Of a DNA stretch of 55,462 nucleotides, positions 2,778-46,899 are shown piece after piece (within the stretch, counting starts at the first letter, position 1; every line of letters starts with the position of its first letter). Position numbers and translations under genes: made by a program. The notes beneath the pieces were generated by a model. It was not told the DNA's origin. It ran no database searches and saw only the letters and a program-made list of their open reading frames with translations. The stretch comes from Chiloscyllium plagiosum (Eukaryota), in NCBI RefSeq assembly GCF_004010195.1, contig NC_057753.1, positions 15,191,470 through 15,246,931 of the forward strand, written 5' to 3'.

Positions 2778-3395
2778 ATAGAATCCCGACAGTGTGTAAA
2801 CAGGCCCTTCAGCCCAACAAGTCCACATTAGCCCGCTGAACAGTAACCCATCCAGACCCATTCCCCTACATTCTACATTTTACCCCTGACTAATGGACCT
2901 AACCTGCACTTCCCTGGGCACTATGGGTAATTTTGCATGGCATTAGGGGTAAGTTACCAGTCAATCCACCTAAACTGCACCTTCCTGGGCACTAGGGGTA
3001 ATTTAGCACAATCAATCCACCTTAACCTGCACATCCCCAGGCACTATGGGTAATTTAGCATGGCCAATCCACCTTAACCTGCACATCCCTGGGCACTATG
3101 GGTAATTTTGCACGGTCAATCCACCCTAACCTGCACATCCCTGGGCACTATGGGTAATTTTGCACGGCCAATCCACCCTAACCTGCATATCCCTGGGCAC
3201 TATGGGTAATTTTGCACGGCCAATCCACCCTAACCTGCACATCAGTCGGGGGAAACTCCAGCACCCGGAGGAAGTCCACACAGACACGGGGAGAATGTGC
3301 AAACCCCACACAGACAGTTGCCAGAGGGTGGAATTGAACCCAGGTCCCTGGCACTGTGAGGCAGCAGTGTCAACCACCGAGCCACTGTGCCACCC
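2778..3395 (-). mobile_element. HE1/V-SINE-type tRNA SINE with an internal ~52-bp tandem expansion (2898-3243)
   Basis: tRNA head (gtggcacagtggctcgg...ggttcaattcc on the - strand), central gtgtctgtgtgg...tcctccgggtgc block and LINE-like tail; aacctgcacatccctgggcactatgggtaatt repeated 6-7 times. Confidence 0.85.
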
Positions 3396-4409: not shown

Positions 4410-4790
4410 GTCCCCGACACACACACACACACACAGACTCGTCCGGGAGCTCACGCGGGCACGCACGCAGCACTGTCCCCGGCATGCGCACACAGACACA
4501 CACACACGTGTGCACACAGACACACACGTGTGCGTGCACACACAGCCCTGTCCCCGACACACACACAGAGCCCCGTCACCGACACACACACAGAGCCCCG
4601 TCCCCAACATACACACACACACCCTTGCTCCTGACACACACAGCTCCGTCCCCAGCAATCGCGCACGCATGCACACACAGCTCCCCCCTGTCCCCAGCAT
4701 GCGCAAGTACACATGCACACAAACACAGCCCTAGCCCCAACTGGGCACGCTCACACACACAGAGACAGACAGACAGACAGAGTCCCGTCC
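4410..4790. repeat. CA-rich compound micro/minisatellite (PIP4P1 intron)
   Basis: (CA)n runs interspersed with gccc(c/t)gtcccc units. Confidence 0.8.
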
Positions 4791-4812
4791 CTATCACTAA
4801 CTCACATCTTAC

Positions 4813-4918
4813 CAGGAATGTGTTTTTACAATGCCCGCAGATAACCCGGGTTCCAGACGGCTGGGGCTCCGGGCTGGTTGGTCCGGGGTGGATGGGTCCC
4901 AGGTTTATTATCCTCTTA
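4813..4918 (-). CDS. PIP4P1: PIP4P1 exon; further upstream exons not seen in this window
   Basis: cccag| ... |gtaaga, phase 2-0; encodes [35 protein letters not shown]. Confidence 0.9.
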
Positions 4919-5057
4919 CTGGGTGCACAACGTCAGACGGAGGGGGAGGGGGGGAGGGGGGGGAGAGACAGAGTTCAGATCAGAGGAGACAGAAAGCACA
5001 GGGCAGTCGAAAGATACCTGCACACCATCGTGCAACCTCCCCACCCCTCCCCTCAAG

Positions 5058-5425
5058 CCTGCAGCACAGGAACAGGAGGCCATTCAGCCCCTCCCTCCTC
5101 CTCCAGCCTGTTACACAGGAACAGGAGGCCATTCAGCCCCTCCCTCTCCAGGCTGTTACACAGGAACAGGAGGCCATTCAGCCCCTCCCTCCTCCAGGCT
5201 GTTACACAGGAACAGAAGGCCATTCAGCCCCTCCCTCCTCCTCCAGTCTGTTACACAGGAACAGGAGGCCATTCAGCCCCTCCCTCCTCCTCCAGGCTGT
5301 TACACAGGAACAGGAGGCCTTTCAGCCCCTCCCTCCTCCTCCAGCCTGTTACACAGGAACAGGAGACTGTTCAGCCCCTCCCTCCTCCTCCAGCCTGTTA
5401 CACAGGAACAGGAGACCGTTCAGAA
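5058..5425. repeat. ~49-bp minisatellite, ~7.5 copies
   Basis: Unit ctgttacacaggaacaggaggccattcagcccctccctcctcctccagc. Confidence 0.9.
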
Positions 5426-5609
5426 CTATCTCCATGAATGATCACACTGAGGCCATCTTTCGAAGGGTGTAGTGTTAAAACATGACTGGGTACTTCCCTC
5501 TTTGAACAAAGTCCACGTGATAATCAAACAGAGCAGACTGTGCCTGAGAAATGCCTTAACTCGGTCATTCAGCTGCTCCCACTACACACCACCAAAGCCA
5601 GGCCGAGGT

Positions 5610-5950
5610 GATGTGCTGCTGGTACTAGCGCTGCACTGTTAATCCATGGTCCCAGGGAAGGTTCTGGAGACCGGGTTGGGAATCCCGCCTCCACAGAGGG
5701 GAGGACTCAAATTCATGATCAGTATCAGGAATGAGGAATCTACTACCACCCACCATTGTCGATTGTTGGGGGAAAACCCCATCTGGCTCACAAACATCCT
5801 TCAGGGAAGGAAACTGCCTTCCTTACCAGGCCTGGTCTACACGTGACTCCAGATCCACAGCAACGGGACTGACTCTCGAAATGCCCGAGGGGGATTTAGG
5901 GACAGGGTAATAATACTCGCTGAGCCAGTGACATCCAGTGAATGAGTAAA
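5610..5950 (+). mobile_element. Ancient interspersed SINE/LINE-tail repeat
   Basis: Related diverged copies at ~22990-23240 and ~43220-43500 (opposite strand) share ctggtctacacgtgactccagatccacagc-like blocks. Confidence 0.5.
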
Positions 5951-6159
5951 GCCAATAAATACTGAGAATATGTACCAGCTCCAATCCTACTTCCAATGTT
6001 ACCTTAGAATCAACCACATGACACTTCCTGCTACTGGCGGATCCGAAATCCCCGAAATTGCACTGACTTCGTCCCCACCCCAGTTTCACACTGACTCCAC
6101 TTCCCCAGGCTCCAGCTCACAAGACATCTATACAATTCACATCATATTCACATACATGA

Positions 6160-8328
6160 ACTGGTGTCTCTCAGACCTCATTCTCGCTCTCTCAGGGAGA
6201 AGAATGTGCACTGACTGCAATCTCTCACTCGTGTGTACGTGTGTGTCTCTCTCTCTCTCTGAGAGATACCCACACACTGACTGGCGTCTCTCAATCCCCT
6301 CTCTCTTTCTATCAGGGGGATATCTGTACACTGAATAGTATCTCAGTCCCCTCTCTTTCAGGGAAATACCTGTACAACGACTGGTGTCTCTCAGGGAGAT
6401 CTTTGTGCAGTGACTAGTATCTCAGGCCTCTCTCTCTCTCTCACACAGAGAGGTAGCATTACACTGACTGGAGATTGTAAGTTGCCTCTCCCTTTCTCAG
6501 GAAGTTATCTGGACACTGACAGATGTCTCTCAGTTCCCTCTTTCTGTCTCAGGGACATATCTGTGCACTGACTGGCATCAGTCAGTTCTCTCTCTCTCTC
6601 TTTCAGGAAGAAATCTGTACACAGACTGGCATCCTGAAGTCCCCCCTCTCTCAGGGACATATCTGTACACTGACTGTTAACTCTCACTCCCCTCTCAGGG
6701 AGATACCTGTACACTGAGTGGTGTCTCTCAGTCCTCTCTCTCTCTCTCGCTCTCGGGGAGATATCTGTATAATGACATAAGTCATTTTAGTCTCCCTCGG
6801 AGATCTTTCTTCACTCACTGGTATCAATTACTCTCCTCTCTCACTATCAGGGAGATAACTGTACACTGACTGGTGTCTCTCAGTCGCCTCCCTCATTGAG
6901 GGAAACATCTGTACACTGGCTGGCATTTCTGTGTTTCCCCCCCACCCCCTTCTCTCAAGGAGATATCTGGACACTGACTGGCGTCCCTCAGTCCCATCCC
7001 TCTCTCTCTCTCTCTCTCTCTCTCTCAGGAAGATATCTGTACACTGACTGGTGTTGCTCAGTCCTGCCCCTCTCTCTCAGGGAGATATCTGTACACTGAC
7101 TGGTGTCTCTCAGACAGATATCTGTACAGCGACTGGTGTCCCTCAGTACATCCGGTCTGCCTCTCTTAGCGAGGTATCGTTGCAGTGACTGGTGTGTCTC
7201 AGTTTCCCCCTCTCTCTCAGGGAGATATCTGTACACTGACTGGTGTCTCACAGTCCACTCTCTCTCTCAGGGAAATATCTGGACACTGACAAGTGTCTCA
7301 GTTCTGTATCTCAGGGAGATATCTGTACACTGACTGGTGTCTCTCAGACCCATCCCCCTCTCTCTCTCTCTCTCAGGAAGATATCTGTACACTGACTGGT
7401 GTTGCTCAGTCCTGCCCCTCTCTCTCAGGGAGATATCTGGACACTGGCTGCTGTCTCTCAGTACCCCCTCTCTCTGCACGGGAGATATCTGTCTCAGTCC
7501 ACCCCCCCCCCCCCCCTCCTCAGGGAACTATCTATATACTGACTAGTGTCTCTCAGTCTCCCCTCTCTCTCAGGGAGATATCTGGACACTGACTCGTGTC
7601 TCTCAGGGACATAACTCTACACTGATTGGTGTCTCTCAGTCCCCCCCTCTTTCTCTCTCTCGGAGATATCTGTACACTGACTGGTGTCTCTTAGCCCTCT
7701 CTCTCAGGGAGATATCTGTACACTGACTGGCATCTCTCAGTCCACATTCTTTCAGGGAGATATCTGTACAGTGACTGGTGTGTCTCAGACCCCCTCTCTC
7801 TCAGGGAGATATCTACACTGACTGGTGTCTCTCACTCCCCCCTCTCTCTCTCTCTCTCAGGAAGATATCTGGACACTGACTACTGTCTCAGTCCTGTATC
7901 TCAGGGAGATATCTGGACACTGACTGGTGTCTCTCAGGGACATAACTCTACACTGATTGGTGTCTCTCAGTCCCTCCCTCTCAGAGATATCTGCACACTG
8001 ACTAGTGTCCCTCAGGGCGATATCTGTACACTGACTAGTGTCTCTCAGTCTTCTCTCTCAGGGTGATATCTGCACACTGACTGGTGTCTCACAGTCCCCT
8101 CTCTCTCTCAGGGTGATATCTGCACACTGACTGGTGTCTCAGTCCCCTCTCTCTCTCAGGGTGATATCTGCACACTGACTGGTGTCTCTCAGTCCCCTCT
8201 CTCTCTCTCTCTCTCAGGGAGATATCTGCACACTGACTGGTGTGTCTCAGTCCTCTCTCTCTCTCTCAGGGAGATATCTGCACACTGACTGGTGTCTCCC
8301 AGTCCTCTCTCTCTCTCTTCGGGAGATT
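6160..8328. repeat. Degenerate ~45-55-bp satellite, roughly 35-40 copies
   Basis: Core ctcagggagatatctgtacactgactggtgtctctcagtcc plus a variable (CT)n spacer. Confidence 0.9.
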
Positions 8329-8604: not shown

Positions 8605-9104
8605 NNNNNNNNNNNNNNNNNNNNNNNNNNNNNNNNNNNNNNNNNNNNNNNNNNNNNNNNNNNNNNNNNNNNNNNNNNNNNNNNNNNNNNNNNNNNNNNN
8701 NNNNNNNNNNNNNNNNNNNNNNNNNNNNNNNNNNNNNNNNNNNNNNNNNNNNNNNNNNNNNNNNNNNNNNNNNNNNNNNNNNNNNNNNNNNNNNNNNNNN
8801 NNNNNNNNNNNNNNNNNNNNNNNNNNNNNNNNNNNNNNNNNNNNNNNNNNNNNNNNNNNNNNNNNNNNNNNNNNNNNNNNNNNNNNNNNNNNNNNNNNNN
8901 NNNNNNNNNNNNNNNNNNNNNNNNNNNNNNNNNNNNNNNNNNNNNNNNNNNNNNNNNNNNNNNNNNNNNNNNNNNNNNNNNNNNNNNNNNNNNNNNNNNN
9001 NNNNNNNNNNNNNNNNNNNNNNNNNNNNNNNNNNNNNNNNNNNNNNNNNNNNNNNNNNNNNNNNNNNNNNNNNNNNNNNNNNNNNNNNNNNNNNNNNNNN
9101 NNNN
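8605..9104. other. Assembly gap (500 N); other gaps at 25507-26006, 44204-44703 (500 N each) and 46355-46898 (544 N)
   Basis: N runs counted directly; identical 500-N lengths suggest placeholder joins. Confidence 0.98.
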
Positions 9105-25255: not shown

Positions 25256-26299
25256 GTGAGAGTGATGTTGGCGTGGCGATTTGAAATTTTGATGAGAATG
25301 AATATAAACAGATATTGATCAGACAGGCAAAAATGCCGAGGAGTGGGCGATGGAGATTAATTTAAATAAATGTGAGATGCGGGTTTTTACAACTAAAATC
25401 TGAGGAGGATTTATACTTTTAATGGAAAGGCTTTGAGGATTGCTGCCAAACAATGAGATCTCGGTGTGCAGACTCTAACAGCATTGAAAATGGAGGCATG
25501 GACAGANNNNNNNNNNNNNNNNNNNNNNNNNNNNNNNNNNNNNNNNNNNNNNNNNNNNNNNNNNNNNNNNNNNNNNNNNNNNNNNNNNNNNNNNNNNNNN
25601 NNNNNNNNNNNNNNNNNNNNNNNNNNNNNNNNNNNNNNNNNNNNNNNNNNNNNNNNNNNNNNNNNNNNNNNNNNNNNNNNNNNNNNNNNNNNNNNNNNNN
25701 NNNNNNNNNNNNNNNNNNNNNNNNNNNNNNNNNNNNNNNNNNNNNNNNNNNNNNNNNNNNNNNNNNNNNNNNNNNNNNNNNNNNNNNNNNNNNNNNNNNN
25801 NNNNNNNNNNNNNNNNNNNNNNNNNNNNNNNNNNNNNNNNNNNNNNNNNNNNNNNNNNNNNNNNNNNNNNNNNNNNNNNNNNNNNNNNNNNNNNNNNNNN
25901 NNNNNNNNNNNNNNNNNNNNNNNNNNNNNNNNNNNNNNNNNNNNNNNNNNNNNNNNNNNNNNNNNNNNNNNNNNNNNNNNNNNNNNNNNNNNNNNNNNNN
26001 NNNNNNGTGTCAGGGCAACACCAGAGATTTCCCAATGTACCAATTGTATTCGGTGATATCACGGGATCTTAGGAGGAATCGTTATCTCTGGAGGTGGCAG
26101 AGAGGAACATGGTGTGGTCCTGTAAACTCCAGAACGTTCATAACTTCATGAGTCAGCAATAACTCTTTCTGGACCAAGAAACGAAAGAGCCAACAAGAAA
26201 CTACTACAAGGGAGTTAAAAAACAACACTGCATTGAACCCCTGGAAGCCTCCAGGGACAGGCACTGTCGGTGAAAACTCAGTTAAACTTTGCCATCAAT

Positions 26300-26984: not shown

Positions 26985-28370
26985 AGATATTTTTGTGGCA
27001 TCCTTAAATACAGGTGAGGTGCCGGAGGACTGGAAGTTGCTCATGTTGTCCCCCAGTACAAGAAGGGTAGTAGGGATATTCCGGGTAACTACAGACAAGT
27101 GAGCCTGACGTCGGTGGTGGGAAAGTTGCTGGAGAAGGTACTGAGGGATAGGATCTATTTATATTTAGAAAAGAATGGGCTTATCAGTGATAGGCAACAT
27201 GGTTTTGTGCGGGGGAGATTGTGCCGTACCAACTTAATTGAGTTCTTCGAGGAAGTTACCAAGTTTAGTAAGGCATTTGATAAGGTTCCCCATGATAGAC
27301 GAATGGAGAAAGTGAAGTCAAAATGCTTTGAGGGTGTTCTAGCTCGGTGGATAAAGAACTGGTTGAGCAACAGGAGACAGAGAGTAGTAGTTGAAGGGAG
27401 TTTCTCAAAAAGGAGAAAGGGTCAGTGTTGGGGCCACTGTTGTTTGTAATTTATATAAATGATCTGGAAGAGGACACTGTTGGTATGACACGAAGATTGG
27501 TGAAGTAGCAGAAAGCATAAGGGACTGTCAGAGAATACAGGAGGATATAGGTAGACTGGAGAATTGGGCGGAAAAGTGGCAGATAGATTACAATCCAGCC
27601 AAATGTGAGGTGATGTATTTAGGCAAGACTAATTCTGAAGCGAATTATACAATGAACAGAAGAGCCTTGGGAAAAGTTGATGGGCAGAGAGATCGGAGAG
27701 TGCAGGTCCACTGTACACTGAAGGTTGCTGCATAGGTGGTTAGAGTGGTCAAGAAGGCATATAGTATGCTTGCCTTCATTGGACAGGGTATGGAGTATAA
27801 AAGTTCGCAAGTCATGTTAACATTGTACAAGACATTGGTTCGGCCACATTTAGAATACTCTGTACAATTCTGGTCACCACATTACCAAAACGATGTGGAC
27901 GTTTTGGAGAGGGTGCAGAGAAGGTTTATGAGGATGTTGCCTGGTATGGAAGGCACTAGCTATGAAGAGAGGTTGAGTAAGTTAGGTTTATTTTCATTAT
28001 AAAAAAGAAGATTGAGGGGAGACCTGAGTGAGGTTTATAAAATCATGAAGAGTATAGACAGGATGGATAGAGACAAGCTTTTTCCCAGGGTGAAGGATTC
28101 AATAACGAGAGGTCACGCTTTCAAGGTGAGAGGTGGAAAGTTTAAGGGGGATACACATGGCGTTTGGAACGCGTTGCCAGCAGAGGTGGTAGAGGCAGGC
28201 ACGGTAGATTCATTTAAGATGCATCTGGATAAATGCATGAGTCGGTGGGGAGCAGAGGGATACAGATGCTTAGGAATTGACTGACAGGTTTAGATAGTAC
28301 ATTTGGATCGGCTCAGGCTTGGAGGGCCGAAGAGCCTGTTCCTGGGCTGTACATTTTCTTTGTTCTTTGA
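26985..28370 (+). mobile_element. CR1-type LINE ORF2 (RT) 3' portion, decayed with deletions
   Basis: [48 protein letters not shown] motifs, followed by the 3' hairpin tail. Confidence 0.9.
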
Positions 28371-28830
28371 ACGGGATGCCATTCGTTTTAAGATCAGGTG
28401 AACTTAAGAGGCATTGTATTGGCTTAGAAATGAGAGATCCTTGACACATACAGCTAAAATCATCGCTGCGCCATTATTAGCGAATTGGAATTAAGGCTGG
28501 ATAGGCTGGGATGGTTTTCTGCTGAAGTAGTGGTTCAGAGCTGACGTTTACAAAACCATGAGGGATACTGATAGGGTTAATGGTAGTTGTCTGTTCCCCA
28601 GGGTGGGGGAATTCAAGACAGCAGGCACATATTTAAGGTGAGAGGAGATAGATTGAAAAGAGATGTGGGGCAAATTCTTTTTACACAAGAGTGTGGTTGG
28701 CATGTGGACTTAGCTGCCAGTGGCAGTGGTTGACGCGGGTACGTTAACAACATTTAAAAGGCATGTGGACAAATACATGGAGAAGAAAGGTTTAGAAGGA
28801 TATAGAGAAGGGAGGCGTGGTAGTAGTTTG

Positions 28831-30270
28831 GCGCACCGACCTCTACACCGCTGAGGCCAAACGCCAGCACACCGACCTCTACACCGCTGAGGCCAAACGC
28901 CAGCACACCGACCTCTACACCGCTGAGGCCAAACGCCAGCACACCGACCTCTACACCGCTGAGGCCAAACGCCAGCACACCGACCTCTACACCGCTGAGG
29001 CCAAACGCCAGCACACCGACCTCTACACCGCTGAGGCCAAACGCCAGCACACCGACCTCTACACCGCTGAGGCCAAACGCCAGCACACCGACCTCTACAC
29101 CGCTGAGGCCAAACGCCAGCACACCGACCTCTACACCGCTGAGGCCAAACGCCAGCACACCGACCTCTACACCGCTGAGGCCAAACGCCAGCACACCGAC
29201 CTCTACACCGCTGAGGCCAAACGCCAGCACACCGACCTCTACACCGCTGAGGCCAAACGCCAGCACACCGACCTCTACACCGCTGAGGCCAAACGCCAGC
29301 ACACCGACCTCTACACCGCTGAGGCCAAACGCCAGCACACCGACCTCTACACCGCTGAGGCCAAACGCCAGCACACCGACCTCTACACCGCTGAGGCCAA
29401 ACGCCAGCACACCGACCTCTACACCGCTGAGGCCAAACGCCAGCACACCGACCTCTACACCGCTGAGGCCAAACGCCAGCACACCGACCTCTACACCGCT
29501 GAGGCCAAACGCCAGCACACCGACCTCTACACCGCTGAGGCCAAACGCCAGCACACCGACCTCTACACCGCTGAGGCCAAACGCCAGCACACCGACCTCT
29601 ACACCGCTGAGGCCAAACGCCAGCACACCGACCTCTACACCGCTGAGGCCAAACGCCAGCACACCGACCTCTACACCGCTGAGGCCAAACGCCAGCACAC
29701 CGACCTCTACACCGCTGAGGCCAAACGCCAGCACACCGACCTCTACACCGCTGAGGCCAAACGCCAGCACACCGACCTCTACACCGCTGAGGCCAAACGC
29801 CAGCACACCGACCTCTACACCGCTGAGGCCAAACGCCAGCACACCGACCTCTACACCGCTGAGGCCAAACGCCAGCACACCGACCTCTACACCGCTGAGG
29901 CCAAACGCCAGCACACCGACCTCTACACCGCTGAGGCCAAACGCCAGCACACCGACCTCTACACCGCTGAGGCCAAACGCCAGCACACCGACCTCTACAC
30001 CGCTGAGGCCAAACGCCAGCACACCGACCTCTACACCGCTGAGGCCAAACGCCAGCACACCGACCTCTACACCGCTGAGGCCAAACGCCAGCACACCGAC
30101 CTCTACACCGCTGAGGCCAAACGCCAGCACACCGACCTCTACACCGCTGAGGCCAAACGCCAGCACACCGACCTCTACACCGCTGAGGCCAAACGCCAGC
30201 ACACCGACCTCTACACCGCTGAGGCCAAACGCCAGCACACCGACCTCTACACCGCTGAGGCCAAACGCCA
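28831..30270. repeat. Perfect 36-bp tandem array, 40 copies
   Basis: Unit gcacaccgacctctacaccgctgaggccaaacgcca; 1440 bp; only copy 1 differs (gcgcac). Confidence 0.97.
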
Positions 30271-30326
30271 CCAAGTCCCTCCTCCCTATCTTTTATCTTA
30301 GCCTGCTGGACCAACTTTCCTCATTC

Positions 30327-30354
30327 CTGAAGAAGGGCTAATGCCCAAAACGTC
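30327..30354 (+). ncRNA. Minimal hammerhead ribozyme motif, core mutated (GAAA to AAAA)
   Basis: CTGAAGA-A-GGGC-TAAT-GCCC-AAAA-CGTC. Confidence 0.6.
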
Positions 30355-30662
30355 GATTCTCCTGTTCCCTAGATGTTGCCTGACCTGCTGCGCTTTTCCA
30401 GCAACACATTTCCATCTCTGATCTCCAGCATCTGCAGACCTCACTTTCTCCTTAGAAGGATATAGACCAAGTACAGGGAAGTGGGGTTAATGTTGATGTG
30501 CCTTTTGGTCAGCATGGACCAGTTTGGGCCGAACGGCCTGTCTCCGTGCTGTAGGACTCTATGACTCACGTCTCTTTGTCACTCCGACAGTTTTGAGTTT
30601 CCAGGTAAGCGTCCCACTAAATCACGCTGAATAAAATCTAAACTCATTCATCAACTCTAAAT

Positions 30663-30868
30663 GTGGAGGTGTTGGTGTTGGATCAGAATGGACAAGGTCA
30701 GAAGTCACTTGGCACCAGGTTAGAGTCCAACAGGTTTACTCGAACTCACGAGCTTTCGGAGCACTGCTCCTTCCTCAGGTGCAGTGATGAAGGAGCAATG
30801 TTGCTAAAGCTTGTGATTTCAAATAAACCTGCTGGACTGTAACCTGGTGCCAAGTGACTTCTGACTTT
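30663..30868. mobile_element. Fold-back Penelope-like (family B) fragment with hammerhead motif on the - strand (30750-30778)
   Basis: Inverted arms cagaagtcacttggcaccaggtta / taacctggtgccaagtgacttctg; - strand CTGAGGA-A-GGAGC-AGT-GCTCC-GAAA-GCTC. Confidence 0.75.
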
Positions 30869-32543: not shown

Positions 32544-33300
32544 TCAGTCCTGGGGGTGACCCACAGCAGCATCACCGGCAGAATCCATTTGTTGGGAGAG
32601 CTGGTGCCTCTGCTGGCGTTTCCGCAAGTTGCCAGACAATGTGAACCTCTGCCCACACTCGGGACAGGCAAACGGTCTCTCCCCTGTGTGGACCCGCTGG
32701 TGGGCCAGCAGGTCGGAGGAGCGGTTAAAGCCCTTCCCACACTCAGGGCAGGAGAACGGGCTCTCATGCGTGTGGACCCGCTGGTGAGCCACGAGGTTGG
32801 AGGCCAGGGCAAAGACCTTCCTGCACTCCTGGCAGCTGAAAGTCCTCTCCCCAGTGTGAATGAATTGGTGCTTCAGCAGGATAGAGGAATTGCTAAAGGC
32901 CTTCCCACACTCAAAACAGGGGAAGAACTTCTCACCCGCTGGTGGGCCACGAGGTGGAAGGAGCGGGTGAACCCCTTCCCACAGTCGGGATAGCTGAAGG
33001 GCTTTACCTCGGTGTGGACCACGGGTGGGCGTGCAGGGCAGAGGAGCAGGTAAAACACTTCCTACACTTGGAGCAGGGGAAGGGCTTCTCCCCGGTGTGG
33101 ACCCGCTGGTGCCTCAACAGGACAGAAGAATTGCTGAAGGCCTTCTCGCACTTGGGACGGGAGAATGGCCTCTCCCCCGGTGTGACTGCGCCGATGAATC
33201 TCCAGGGCAGACGGGCATGGAAGCCTTTCCTGCAGTCACCACACTTCCACAGTTTCTCCACAGGGCGGGATTCCTCGGGTTTCTCCATGGCCGAAACTTC
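32544..33300 (-). pseudogene. C2H2 zinc-finger gene, frameshifted
   Basis: MEKPEESRPVEKLWKCGDCRKGF...HQRVHTGEKPF...; about 8 fingers spread over several frames, some lacking Cys/His. Confidence 0.85.
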
Positions 33301-43557: not shown

Positions 43558-44203
43558 TGTGAACTCTCTGGTGCCCCTGCAGGTGGGAGCAGCAGGTGAA
43601 GCCCTTCCCGCACTGAGATCAGGTGAATGGCCTCTCCCTGGTGTGGACCCGCTTGTGGGTCAGCGGTTTAGCCGACCAAGTGAACCCCTTCCTGCACTCG
43701 GGGCACCCGAAGGTCCTCTCCCCATGTGGACCTGGTCATGCTTCCGCAAGTTGCCCACCTGACTGAACCCCTTCCCGCACACAGAGCAGATGAACGGTCT
43801 CTCCCTGGTGTGGACCCACTTGTGGATCAGCAGTGCAGCTGCCTGAGTGAATTCCCCCCAGCACACGGGGCACATAAACGGCATCTCTCCTGTGTGGACC
43901 CACTGGTGCCTCTGCAAGTTCCCCACCTGACTGAATCCCTGCCCGCACACTGAGCAGGTGAACAGTCTCTCCCCAGTGTGGACTCGCTGGTGGATCAGCA
44001 GGCCAGTAGCATTCACAAACCCCTTCCCGCACACGGGGCACCTGTACGGCCTCTCTCTGGTGTGGACCCGCTCATGATTTCGCAAGTTACTCACACGGCA
44101 GAAGGCCTTTCCACACTCGGGACAGGAGAATGCCCCCCCCCCCCCCCCGGTGTGGACTTGCTTGTGCGTCCATAGGTCGCCCTTCCCGCACTGAGAGCAG
44201 GTA
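43558..44203 (-). pseudogene. C2H2 zinc-finger gene (partial, runs into the gap; frameshift and stop near the 3' end)
   Basis: Five consecutive CxxC...HxxxH fingers with TGERPF-type linkers, then a frameshift near 43710. Confidence 0.85.
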
Positions 44204-44703
44204 NNNNNNNNNNNNNNNNNNNNNNNNNNNNNNNNNNNNNNNNNNNNNNNNNNNNNNNNNNNNNNNNNNNNNNNNNNNNNNNNNNNNNNNNNNNNNNNNN
44301 NNNNNNNNNNNNNNNNNNNNNNNNNNNNNNNNNNNNNNNNNNNNNNNNNNNNNNNNNNNNNNNNNNNNNNNNNNNNNNNNNNNNNNNNNNNNNNNNNNNN
44401 NNNNNNNNNNNNNNNNNNNNNNNNNNNNNNNNNNNNNNNNNNNNNNNNNNNNNNNNNNNNNNNNNNNNNNNNNNNNNNNNNNNNNNNNNNNNNNNNNNNN
44501 NNNNNNNNNNNNNNNNNNNNNNNNNNNNNNNNNNNNNNNNNNNNNNNNNNNNNNNNNNNNNNNNNNNNNNNNNNNNNNNNNNNNNNNNNNNNNNNNNNNN
44601 NNNNNNNNNNNNNNNNNNNNNNNNNNNNNNNNNNNNNNNNNNNNNNNNNNNNNNNNNNNNNNNNNNNNNNNNNNNNNNNNNNNNNNNNNNNNNNNNNNNN
44701 NNN

Positions 44704-46354: not shown

Positions 46355-46899
46355 NNNNNNNNNNNNNNNNNNNNNNNNNNNNNNNNNNNNNNNNNNNNNN
46401 NNNNNNNNNNNNNNNNNNNNNNNNNNNNNNNNNNNNNNNNNNNNNNNNNNNNNNNNNNNNNNNNNNNNNNNNNNNNNNNNNNNNNNNNNNNNNNNNNNNN
46501 NNNNNNNNNNNNNNNNNNNNNNNNNNNNNNNNNNNNNNNNNNNNNNNNNNNNNNNNNNNNNNNNNNNNNNNNNNNNNNNNNNNNNNNNNNNNNNNNNNNN
46601 NNNNNNNNNNNNNNNNNNNNNNNNNNNNNNNNNNNNNNNNNNNNNNNNNNNNNNNNNNNNNNNNNNNNNNNNNNNNNNNNNNNNNNNNNNNNNNNNNNNN
46701 NNNNNNNNNNNNNNNNNNNNNNNNNNNNNNNNNNNNNNNNNNNNNNNNNNNNNNNNNNNNNNNNNNNNNNNNNNNNNNNNNNNNNNNNNNNNNNNNNNNN
46801 NNNNNNNNNNNNNNNNNNNNNNNNNNNNNNNNNNNNNNNNNNNNNNNNNNNNNNNNNNNNNNNNNNNNNNNNNNNNNNNNNNNNNNNNNNNNNNNNNNG

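Follow-up and report, generated by a model that had tools for sequence, protein, structure and literature searches.

The window analysed here is a stretch of 55,462 nucleotides from Chiloscyllium plagiosum (assembly GCF_004010195.1, contig NC_057753.1, positions 15,191,470 to 15,246,931 of the forward strand), and its subject is an insertion of a Penelope-like element (PLE) in which a 36-nt piece of coding sequence stands in about 40 tandem copies. The insertion site is the 3′ part of a + strand long interspersed element (LINE), whose decayed reverse transcriptase (RT) open reading frame (ORF) gives an RVT_1 match 1.4 kb upstream; the flanks of the insertion (28201-28806 and 30452-30800, in window coordinates) have paralogues elsewhere in the window at 67-83% identity. 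The 15-mer TTAGAAGGATATAGA occurs only twice within the window, at 28792-28806 and 30452-30466; it is the target-site duplication (TSD) and bears out the bracketing repeat noticed in the initial annotation, enclosing an insert of 1,645 nt (28807-30451). The features of the locus are as follows.

27018..27449, + strand: decayed reverse-transcriptase ORF of the host LINE (Pfam RVT_1, E 5.8e-11, 42.9 bits)
28792..28806, + strand: left TSD copy, a 15-mer identical to 30452-30466
28807..28833, + strand: head, 27 nt of the PLE ORF reading KGGVVVVW(R), starting right after the D of the DKG motif
28834..30237, + strand: 39 identical 36-nt units, each with 35 native nt (CACCG...CCAGC, which code for TDLYTAEAKRQ) and a single non-native A per joint
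30238..30270, + strand: last unit, 33 nt, broken at position 33 and followed by the tail
30268..30451, + strand: tail, the terminal 184 nt of the PLE (ORF end and 3′ region)
30327..30351, + strand: hammerhead-like box CTGAAGAAGGGCTAATGCCCAAAAC, visible by eye, with A in place of the G of GAAA
30452..30466, + strand: right TSD copy, identical to the left copy

The three-part layout first proposed for the insert stands, with other measurements: the head is 27 nt and not 24, the array is made of 39 full units and a 33-nt unit rather than 40 full ones, and the tail is 184 nt long. Tandem Repeats Finder, run on the window, reports the array at 28834-30270 with a period of 36, 39.9 copies, 100% matches and a score of 2874. 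The CCA at 30268-30270 is compatible with both the last unit and the tail, and the first base of the head is a non-native G where native copies have C. At the 5′ junction (28804-28811) AGA forms the end of the TSD and likewise precedes the head in the native element (cagaCAAGGG vs tagaGAAGGG), a possible 3-nt overlap with one mismatched base.

The insert is a young, TSD-bounded, 5′-truncated and internally deleted PLE, and its head, array and tail are best read as stemming from one event, because a single TSD encloses all three and the array-to-tail joint is found once in the 3.56-Gb assembly to which the window belongs. The proposal that one event had joined the 3′ end of the element to a distant RT-coding segment is supported by the same observations, the two segments lying about 1.9 kb apart natively. 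The array bears no sign of function and sits in a dead LINE.

Source element and hammerhead-like box

The source of the insert is a young and abundant PLE family. Positions 2-62 of a head-plus-unit query are 97-100% identical to the 39 other genomic places scored out of 1,398 candidates, and the head with the first unit is 100% identical to two other genomic copies; the tail is 92-99% identical to the 39 other places scored out of 1,762 candidates, and other tail-like copies within the window reach only 71-85% identity. Across 29 genomic copies the native sequence runs ...aaccagcagaCAAGGGAGGCG[C/T]GGTAGTAGTTTGGCGCACCGACCTCTACACCGCTGAGGCCAAACGCCAGCTCGCagatacc..., and native copies read KPADKGGAVVVWRTDLYTAEAKRQL upstream of the RVT_1 domain, which confirms the earlier assignment of the unit to the coding sequence of the PLE RT region. 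The reference copy L075 has an open frame of 754 codons with KPADKGGAVVVWRTDLYTAEAKRQL at residues 66-91 and RVT_1 at 150-330; a Pfam GIY-YIG match at residues 567-597 of this frame (E 2.5e-4, 21.7 bits) falls slightly below the cut-off of 22.6, and LLYIGETG is readable in the translation. RVT_1 matches cover residues 150-330 of the source-family proteins P0001 and P0002 (E 6e-8 and 9e-8; 33 and 32.5 bits, cut-off 29.6), both of which carry the DKG motif as KPADKGGAVVVW. The available part of PMC8557442 treats this motif as diagnostic of PLE RTs and places PLEs as sister to telomerase reverse transcriptase (TERT). The insert itself retains only residues 67-93 of the PLE ORF and begins at the K of the motif, the D being lost. 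The tail maps to 4476-4630 of L075, an individual reference copy, 1.94 kb after the head; the insert fuses the N-terminal DKG region to the last 184 nt of the same PLE, with about 1.9 kb omitted.

Insertions of the source family show truncated and chimeric 5′ ends, and inverted partial tails are present in nine of 29 sampled loci. At L022 (G000:C5:52919699-52922880, ~1420-1500) a tail copy stands behind an inverted ORF piece containing the same 36-nt unit; the inverted piece ends 6 nt upstream of the unit start, which is another breakpoint in the DKG region. At L072 (G000:C8:54677500-54685500) a PLE copy lies within a long 65-nt satellite (3-1866 and 4578-7694), with about 29 and 44 units on its two sides and roughly 71-72% matches.

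A hammerhead motif in the tail, shared with other copies in the window, had been proposed; a box of the CUGANGA...GAAA-like kind is indeed visible by eye, with no Rfam match to accompany it and with window copies that are only 71-85% alike. The box CTGAAGAAGGGCTAATGCCCAAAAC is exact in 18 of 29 other copies, which like the present one have A for the G of GAAA, and seven of the 29 carry CCCGAAAC. Rfam hammerhead models gave no match at E<=1 in 28500-30800, none at the gathering score in the whole window and none in 20 other loci of the source family, though minimal hammerheads may escape such models. The only Rfam matches in the searched PLE loci are sub-threshold microRNA models on inverted PLE arms. 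Among these, a long perfect hairpin of inverted arms at L011 (708-896) scores 115 bits on the plant model MIR1858 (gathering score 137); it was rejected as a microRNA, being below the gathering score and a structural look-alike. Hairpin-driven slippage was likewise rejected as a source of the array, since three units folded as DNA are not stabler than shuffles (z = 0.16).

Two other arrays in the window have a period of 84 nt (32652-32858 and 43597-44088); they look like arrays of the C2H2 zinc-finger-exon kind, the unit reading on the minus strand, and the first of them lies about 2 kb from the insertion.

Joints of the array and its presence in other individuals

The 28-mer spanning array and tail has one occurrence in the whole genome; of 29 other copies, 24 have native ...catttccgacgcccct immediately before the tail, and none has a directly oriented 36-mer there. 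Between units, the native base after CCAGC is T in all 29 native copies, and about 1,150 native reads from three individuals continue with TCGCAG after 28868, whereas all 39 array joints have A. A 30-mer across the joint (allowing at most two mismatches) and the 21-mer ...CGCCAGCAC (ending ...CAGCAC) were each found 39 times, every time in the array and nowhere else in the assembly; no copy of either internal joint was found elsewhere in the 3.56 Gb. An identical, non-native A at 39 joints fits a single joint that was formed once and later copied. Because realignment on the native template predicts T, the A at every joint also argues against the telomerase-like reiterative copying suggested in the initial annotation. 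The same annotation had read copy 1 as differing by a CpG-type G>A; the G proves to be the native upstream base, and it is the A at the 39 joints that is non-native. Six native copies carry TTTGGCACACC, a CpG-decayed left flank; the joint may therefore also have come from duplication of 36 nt over a GC overlap and a later G>A change.

A further constraint on the order of events comes from the break in the last unit. The full units contain the native G34 and C35, which lie beyond that break at position 33; therefore at least one full unit was made from native template no later than the tail joint itself. Origin of the array by in-place duplication of a one-unit insert would not be possible unless a 3-nt filler had matched the native bases by chance.

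The age of the insert was assessed from its tail, which shows three differences from the column majority of 29 other copies; two of these are shared subfamily states, and the only near-private change is at 30376 (T vs C in 28 of 29 copies), a non-CpG site. The contrast once drawn between CpG decay in the tail and intact CpGs in the array falls away, as the tail has no private CpG decay and the supposedly decayed state CCCAAAAC is common to 18 of the 29 copies. By these comparisons the insert is young. The difference between a single change across the 245 nt of head, first unit and tail and none in the 1,404 nt of units is not significant (Fisher P = 0.15), and the CpG clock carries no weight in either direction.

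The region 28560-28990 was compared with four sequencing runs: X1, a 2023 run available as contigs and possibly the source sample of the assembly, and the raw reads of X19, X20 and X21, three other individuals each sampled at 0.54x. In X1 the unique flank has a contig word depth of 11.2 and bins 28875-28899 a depth of 166; the latter belongs to the joint-bearing contig only, because native PLE contigs end at 28868. The ratio corresponds, as a rough figure, to ~15 joints per diploid depth, or ~30 if the array is on one allele, and with joint depth some 15 times that of the unique flank it is unlikely that the assembled allele has only one to three real units.

In X19, X20 and X21 the depth of array-interior reads (bins 28905-28934) is 0. 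The number of array-touching reads expected per run is 5.75 if the array is homozygous and 2.88 if it is heterozygous, and the probability of no interior read in all three is 3e-8 if homozygous and 1.8e-4 if all are heterozygous; the long array is therefore not fixed in the species. One X19 read spans 28875-28904 and crosses the first joint. The unit joint thus exists in at least two samples, X1 and X19, and X19 possibly carries a shorter allele.

The array lies within an 18-kb gap-free stretch between N runs at 25507-26006 and 44204-44703. Three N runs of the window are of exactly 500 (8605-9104 and the two just named) and one is of 544 (46355-46898); this is a scaffolded assembly whose gaps have conventional lengths.

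Short tandem iterations in sister insertions

A survey of 147 other loci of the source family was made in two sets, 86 independent exploratory loci (57,704 PLE bases) and 61 new confirmatory loci (65,767 PLE bases), the criteria for the latter being set in advance. Clear events were PLE-derived arrays with a period of at least 20, and an event was considered near when it lay within 30 nt of a 5′ end or of a switch point. N runs of ~1.4-1.5 kb stand shortly after the DKG region in many copies (L041 1580-3061, L047 1563-3061, L132 1830-3194), possibly as assembly gaps, and hide most RT-coding parts, so that the survey samples element ends better than middles. The events are listed by locus, with unit length and copy number.

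L047, 26 nt x 3.2: exploratory; unit from 73 nt downstream, set before the copy truncated there
L026, 38 nt x 2: exploratory; layout as in L047; inside the TSD TCATTTTACTG
L103, 113 nt x 3.2: exploratory; extreme 5′ end; inside a TSD
L016, 28 nt x 4: exploratory; placed exactly where the inverted arm gives way to the direct one; inside a TSD; joint lengths 28/29/28
L041, 35 nt x 2.3: exploratory; 18 nt from an inverted/direct switch; CAC overlap at the joint
L042, 35 nt x 2: exploratory; internal
L167 (G000:C6:5800839-5804079, 3127-3214), 29 nt x 3.0, 100% identical: confirmatory; extreme 5′ end of a truncated copy
L169, 27 nt x 2.0: confirmatory; extreme 5′ end
L115, 69 nt x 3.1: confirmatory; internal; 8-nt border homology
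L173 and L174 (G000:C6:47927156-47930396 and C5:58727792-58731032; 1225-1330), 53 nt x 2: confirmatory; internal; counted once
L132, 36 nt x 2, 80%: confirmatory; doubtful, resembling the native low-complexity 5′ region

Set aside from these were six low-complexity rows of 12-14 nt (L008, L011, L025, L042b, L057, L081), L010 (108 nt x 2, an additional partial tail at the 3′ end) and L043 (72 nt x 2.4, 76%, PLE origin not clear). Five of the six exploratory events are near in this sense, where the null fraction is 0.084 (P = 2.4e-5), or five of eight when L010 and L043 are counted as misses (P = 1.9e-4). For the confirmatory set, with a null fraction of 0.061, two of four clear events are near a 5′ end (P = 0.02), or three of five with L132 (P = 0.002). 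Both sets together give seven of ten (P = 1e-6), and seven of 13 when every set-aside row is counted as a miss (P = 1.1e-5).

The comparable arrays that had been sought in other PLE insertions thus exist in short form, with two to four copies. A geometric fit to these copy numbers gives P ~4e-11 for 39 joints, and therefore a second process is needed to reach 40 copies. In L047 and L026 the units are taken from 66-73 nt downstream of the truncation point, an arrangement that in-place slippage cannot produce. The unit of L167 overlaps the head and unit start of the 40-copy locus; the DKG-motif region may be a preferred stop or switch site. L173 and L174 lie on different contigs and share both the duplication and the 5′ truncation point; the pair would have arisen by segmental duplication or by transposition of a variant in which the 53-nt duplication was already present.

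Origin of the array

The account that is tentatively preferred, at a little short of an even chance when taken as a whole, is that the repeat was probably seeded by template switching during insertion and then likely grew by DNA-level minisatellite expansion. Synthesis of complementary DNA (cDNA) would start from the tail and switch, over the 3-nt CCA overlap, to the ORF about 1.9 kb upstream; after 33 nt had been copied, one switch back (or a few) would lead to a point 2 nt further 3′, with one extra A added, and a further 27 nt would be copied before joining to the target. Unequal exchange or replication slippage would then raise this one joint to the roughly 40 copies of the assembled allele. 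Enzyme switching is favoured as the origin of both the deletion joint and the first unit joint because of the clustering at 5′ ends, the units derived from downstream sequence, the position within the TSD and the native bases past the break. Amplification of one joint is favoured over 39 enzyme jumps because the non-template joints are identical, iterations elsewhere have two to four copies and three individuals lack the long array. Amplification of this kind is the accepted way in which minisatellites grow: the available part of bioRxiv 10.64898/2026.07.22.740005 models satellite birth as an initial tandem on which unequal crossover then acts, and growth of minisatellites by local unit duplication is described in that of PMC3389668.

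Several points weigh against this account. The RT of the element and a host polymerase are indistinguishable by sequence as makers of the seeding switches. Neither an empty site nor an allele of one, two or a few units was seen, so that growth after the insertion is something we infer; the complete identity of the 39 units is as compatible with a one-shot product as with very recent expansion. The X1 ratio derives from summed contig word depths, which are not copy numbers. In the survey, the 30-nt threshold and the choice of exploratory events were made after the pattern had been noticed, and the confirmatory test is small (two of four, or three of five with the doubtful L132).

In the available part of PMC8857657, template jumping by the R2 RT requires non-templated addition to the cDNA, mostly of A; the extra base here is A on the RNA-sense strand and T on the cDNA and does not match this habit, which is that of an R2 and not a PLE enzyme.

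It is unlikely that the array is a one-shot RT product, in which the PLE enzyme copied the 35-nt stretch about 40 times in one insertion by repeated switch-back or from a small circular template; it is correspondingly doubtful that the array is a record of telomerase-like repeat addition by the closest relative of telomerase. Such a product would account for an array that lies inside the TSD and 27 nt from the 5′ end of the insert, where sister insertions carry iterations of two to four copies, for the 100% identity of the units and for the native bases past the tail break in the full units. The relationship of PLE RTs to TERT as sister groups (available part of PMC8557442) and the tandem-repeat cDNA synthesis recorded for other RTs, namely DRT2 and DRT10 (available parts of PMC12039810 and bioRxiv 10.64898/2026.06.29.735271), also speak for it. 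Realignment on native RNA, however, predicts T or no extra base, where 39 of 39 joints have A, and 39 independent non-templated additions of one base are unlikely; the joints of L016, which are apparently independent, vary in length (28/29/28). The other cases end at two to four copies, with the improbability of 39 joints given above, and X19 has a joint-crossing read but no interior reads. The initial annotation had offered a small circular RNA as a template; a circle made by the hammerhead of the element is disfavoured in that the unit is without a hammerhead, so that the ribozyme would not make it.

A related possibility, also given a low probability, is that the PLE RT itself re-copies a short internal RNA stretch repeatedly at the end of cDNA synthesis, the 40-copy array being a rare, highly processive run. 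If this were true, the 5′ iterations of two to four copies would be the usual footprint of the enzyme, and the array a natural record of its repeat-addition processivity.

Polymerase theta makes templated insertions, and end joining typically leaves a one-base filler. Both the seed and the deletion joint could have been made by a host end-joining or repair polymerase, through templated insertion of the theta type, as the new cDNA was joined to the chromosome at its 5′ end, with the later history as in the preferred account. The clustering of iterations at 5′ junctions and switch points, where host repair acts, is in keeping with this, as are the short overlaps at joints (CCA here, CAC in L041) and the single extra base; iteration of 26-113-nt units as many as four times and a 1.9-kb jump within the element's own sequence are easier to explain as RNA-template switching, and the involvement of a host polymerase is considered improbable.

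A purely DNA-level history is equally held at low probability; in it a 5′-truncated copy of ~2.2 kb was inserted, a later 36-nt duplication expanded, and a 1.9-kb deletion then removed the sequence between array and tail. It draws support from internal duplications in the source family (L042, 35 nt x 2; L115, 69 nt x 3.1; L173/L174, 53 nt x 2) and from the six native copies with TTTGGCACACC, in which G>A at that CpG does happen. Minisatellites derived from transposable elements (TEs) are common and are said to grow by local duplication (available part of PMC3389668). The history nonetheless needs three independent events, namely duplication with expansion, a joint change or filler, and a 1.9-kb deletion ending in the array, which must fit into the time in which no more than one change arose in 245 nt of head, first unit and tail; the 5′-end clustering of arrays in other insertions is also left unexplained.

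The initial annotation held that DNA-level expansion and an assembler loop fitted equally well, of which the former serves better for the growth of the array; an artefact, in which an assembler or gap filler looped through a 36-nt cycle of one to three real units, is very unlikely. In its favour, the assembly is scaffolded with fixed 500-N gaps, a perfect 1.4-kb array is uncountable with short reads and three other individuals gave no array-interior reads. Against it stand the depth of the X1 joint contig, 166 vs 11.2 in the unique flank beside it, the reads and contigs that cross the joint in X1 and X19 and make a minimum of two units certain, and the position of the array inside the gap-free 18 kb.

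With respect to known systems, the insert is a member of the known complex endonuclease-positive (EN+) PLE insertions, and the array is a TE-derived minisatellite. As in the complex EN+ insertions described in the available part of PMC8557442, the source family has an RT with an upstream DKG motif, a putative GIY-YIG-like end and frequent 5′ truncation, and there is a TSD, with inverted partial copies upstream of the tail and chimeric joints in one insertion. The partial tandems of PLEs in the same source join the 3′ end of one element to the 5′ part of the next copy and form pseudo-long terminal repeats (pLTRs) of hundreds of bases; here and at seven other loci, in contrast, an internal stretch of 26-113 nt beside the 5′ end or switch point is iterated, and the present locus has 40 iterations together with a 1.9-kb internal deletion. 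The array resembles the TE-derived minisatellites of PMC3389668 (available part) in being a head-to-tail array of a piece of a young TE, with growth that was probably by local duplication; unlike in those, the first duplication can be tied to an insertion by its position within the TSD, the native bases past the break and the 5′ clustering.

Telomerase, DRT2 (PMC12039810) and DRT10 (bioRxiv 10.64898/2026.06.29.735271), as far as the available parts of these sources describe them, are alike in that a related or analogous RT copies a short template stretch many times head to tail. The repeat joint in these systems is set by template and realignment, whereas here the joint base is absent from the native template, there is no dedicated template RNA and the sister cases end at two to four copies. 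Animal non-LTR retrozymes (available part of bioRxiv 10.64898/2026.07.22.740005) are also PLE-derived tandem repeats; their units are non-coding end pieces, each with a type I hammerhead, and the present unit is 36 nt of ORF without a ribozyme. The array thus lacks both the template-set joint that defines telomerase-like synthesis and the per-unit hammerhead of retrozymes. In the openly accessible literature searched, no account was found of short iterations recurring at the 5′ ends or switch points of PLE insertions.

To our knowledge, no in-vitro system for PLEs exists. How PLEs build their odd tandem and inverted insertions is presented as an open question in the available part of PMC8557442, and the initiation of TE-derived tandem repeats as mostly unexplained in that of PMC3389668. 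This locus and its seven sister insertions provide a countable footprint of PLE insertion, in which short internal stretches are iterated within the TSD, right at the switch point or 5′ end. The locus also illustrates how retrotransposition can supply a new minisatellite with its first tandem duplication; it is a clue to the insertion mechanism of PLEs rather than evidence of telomerase-like synthesis.

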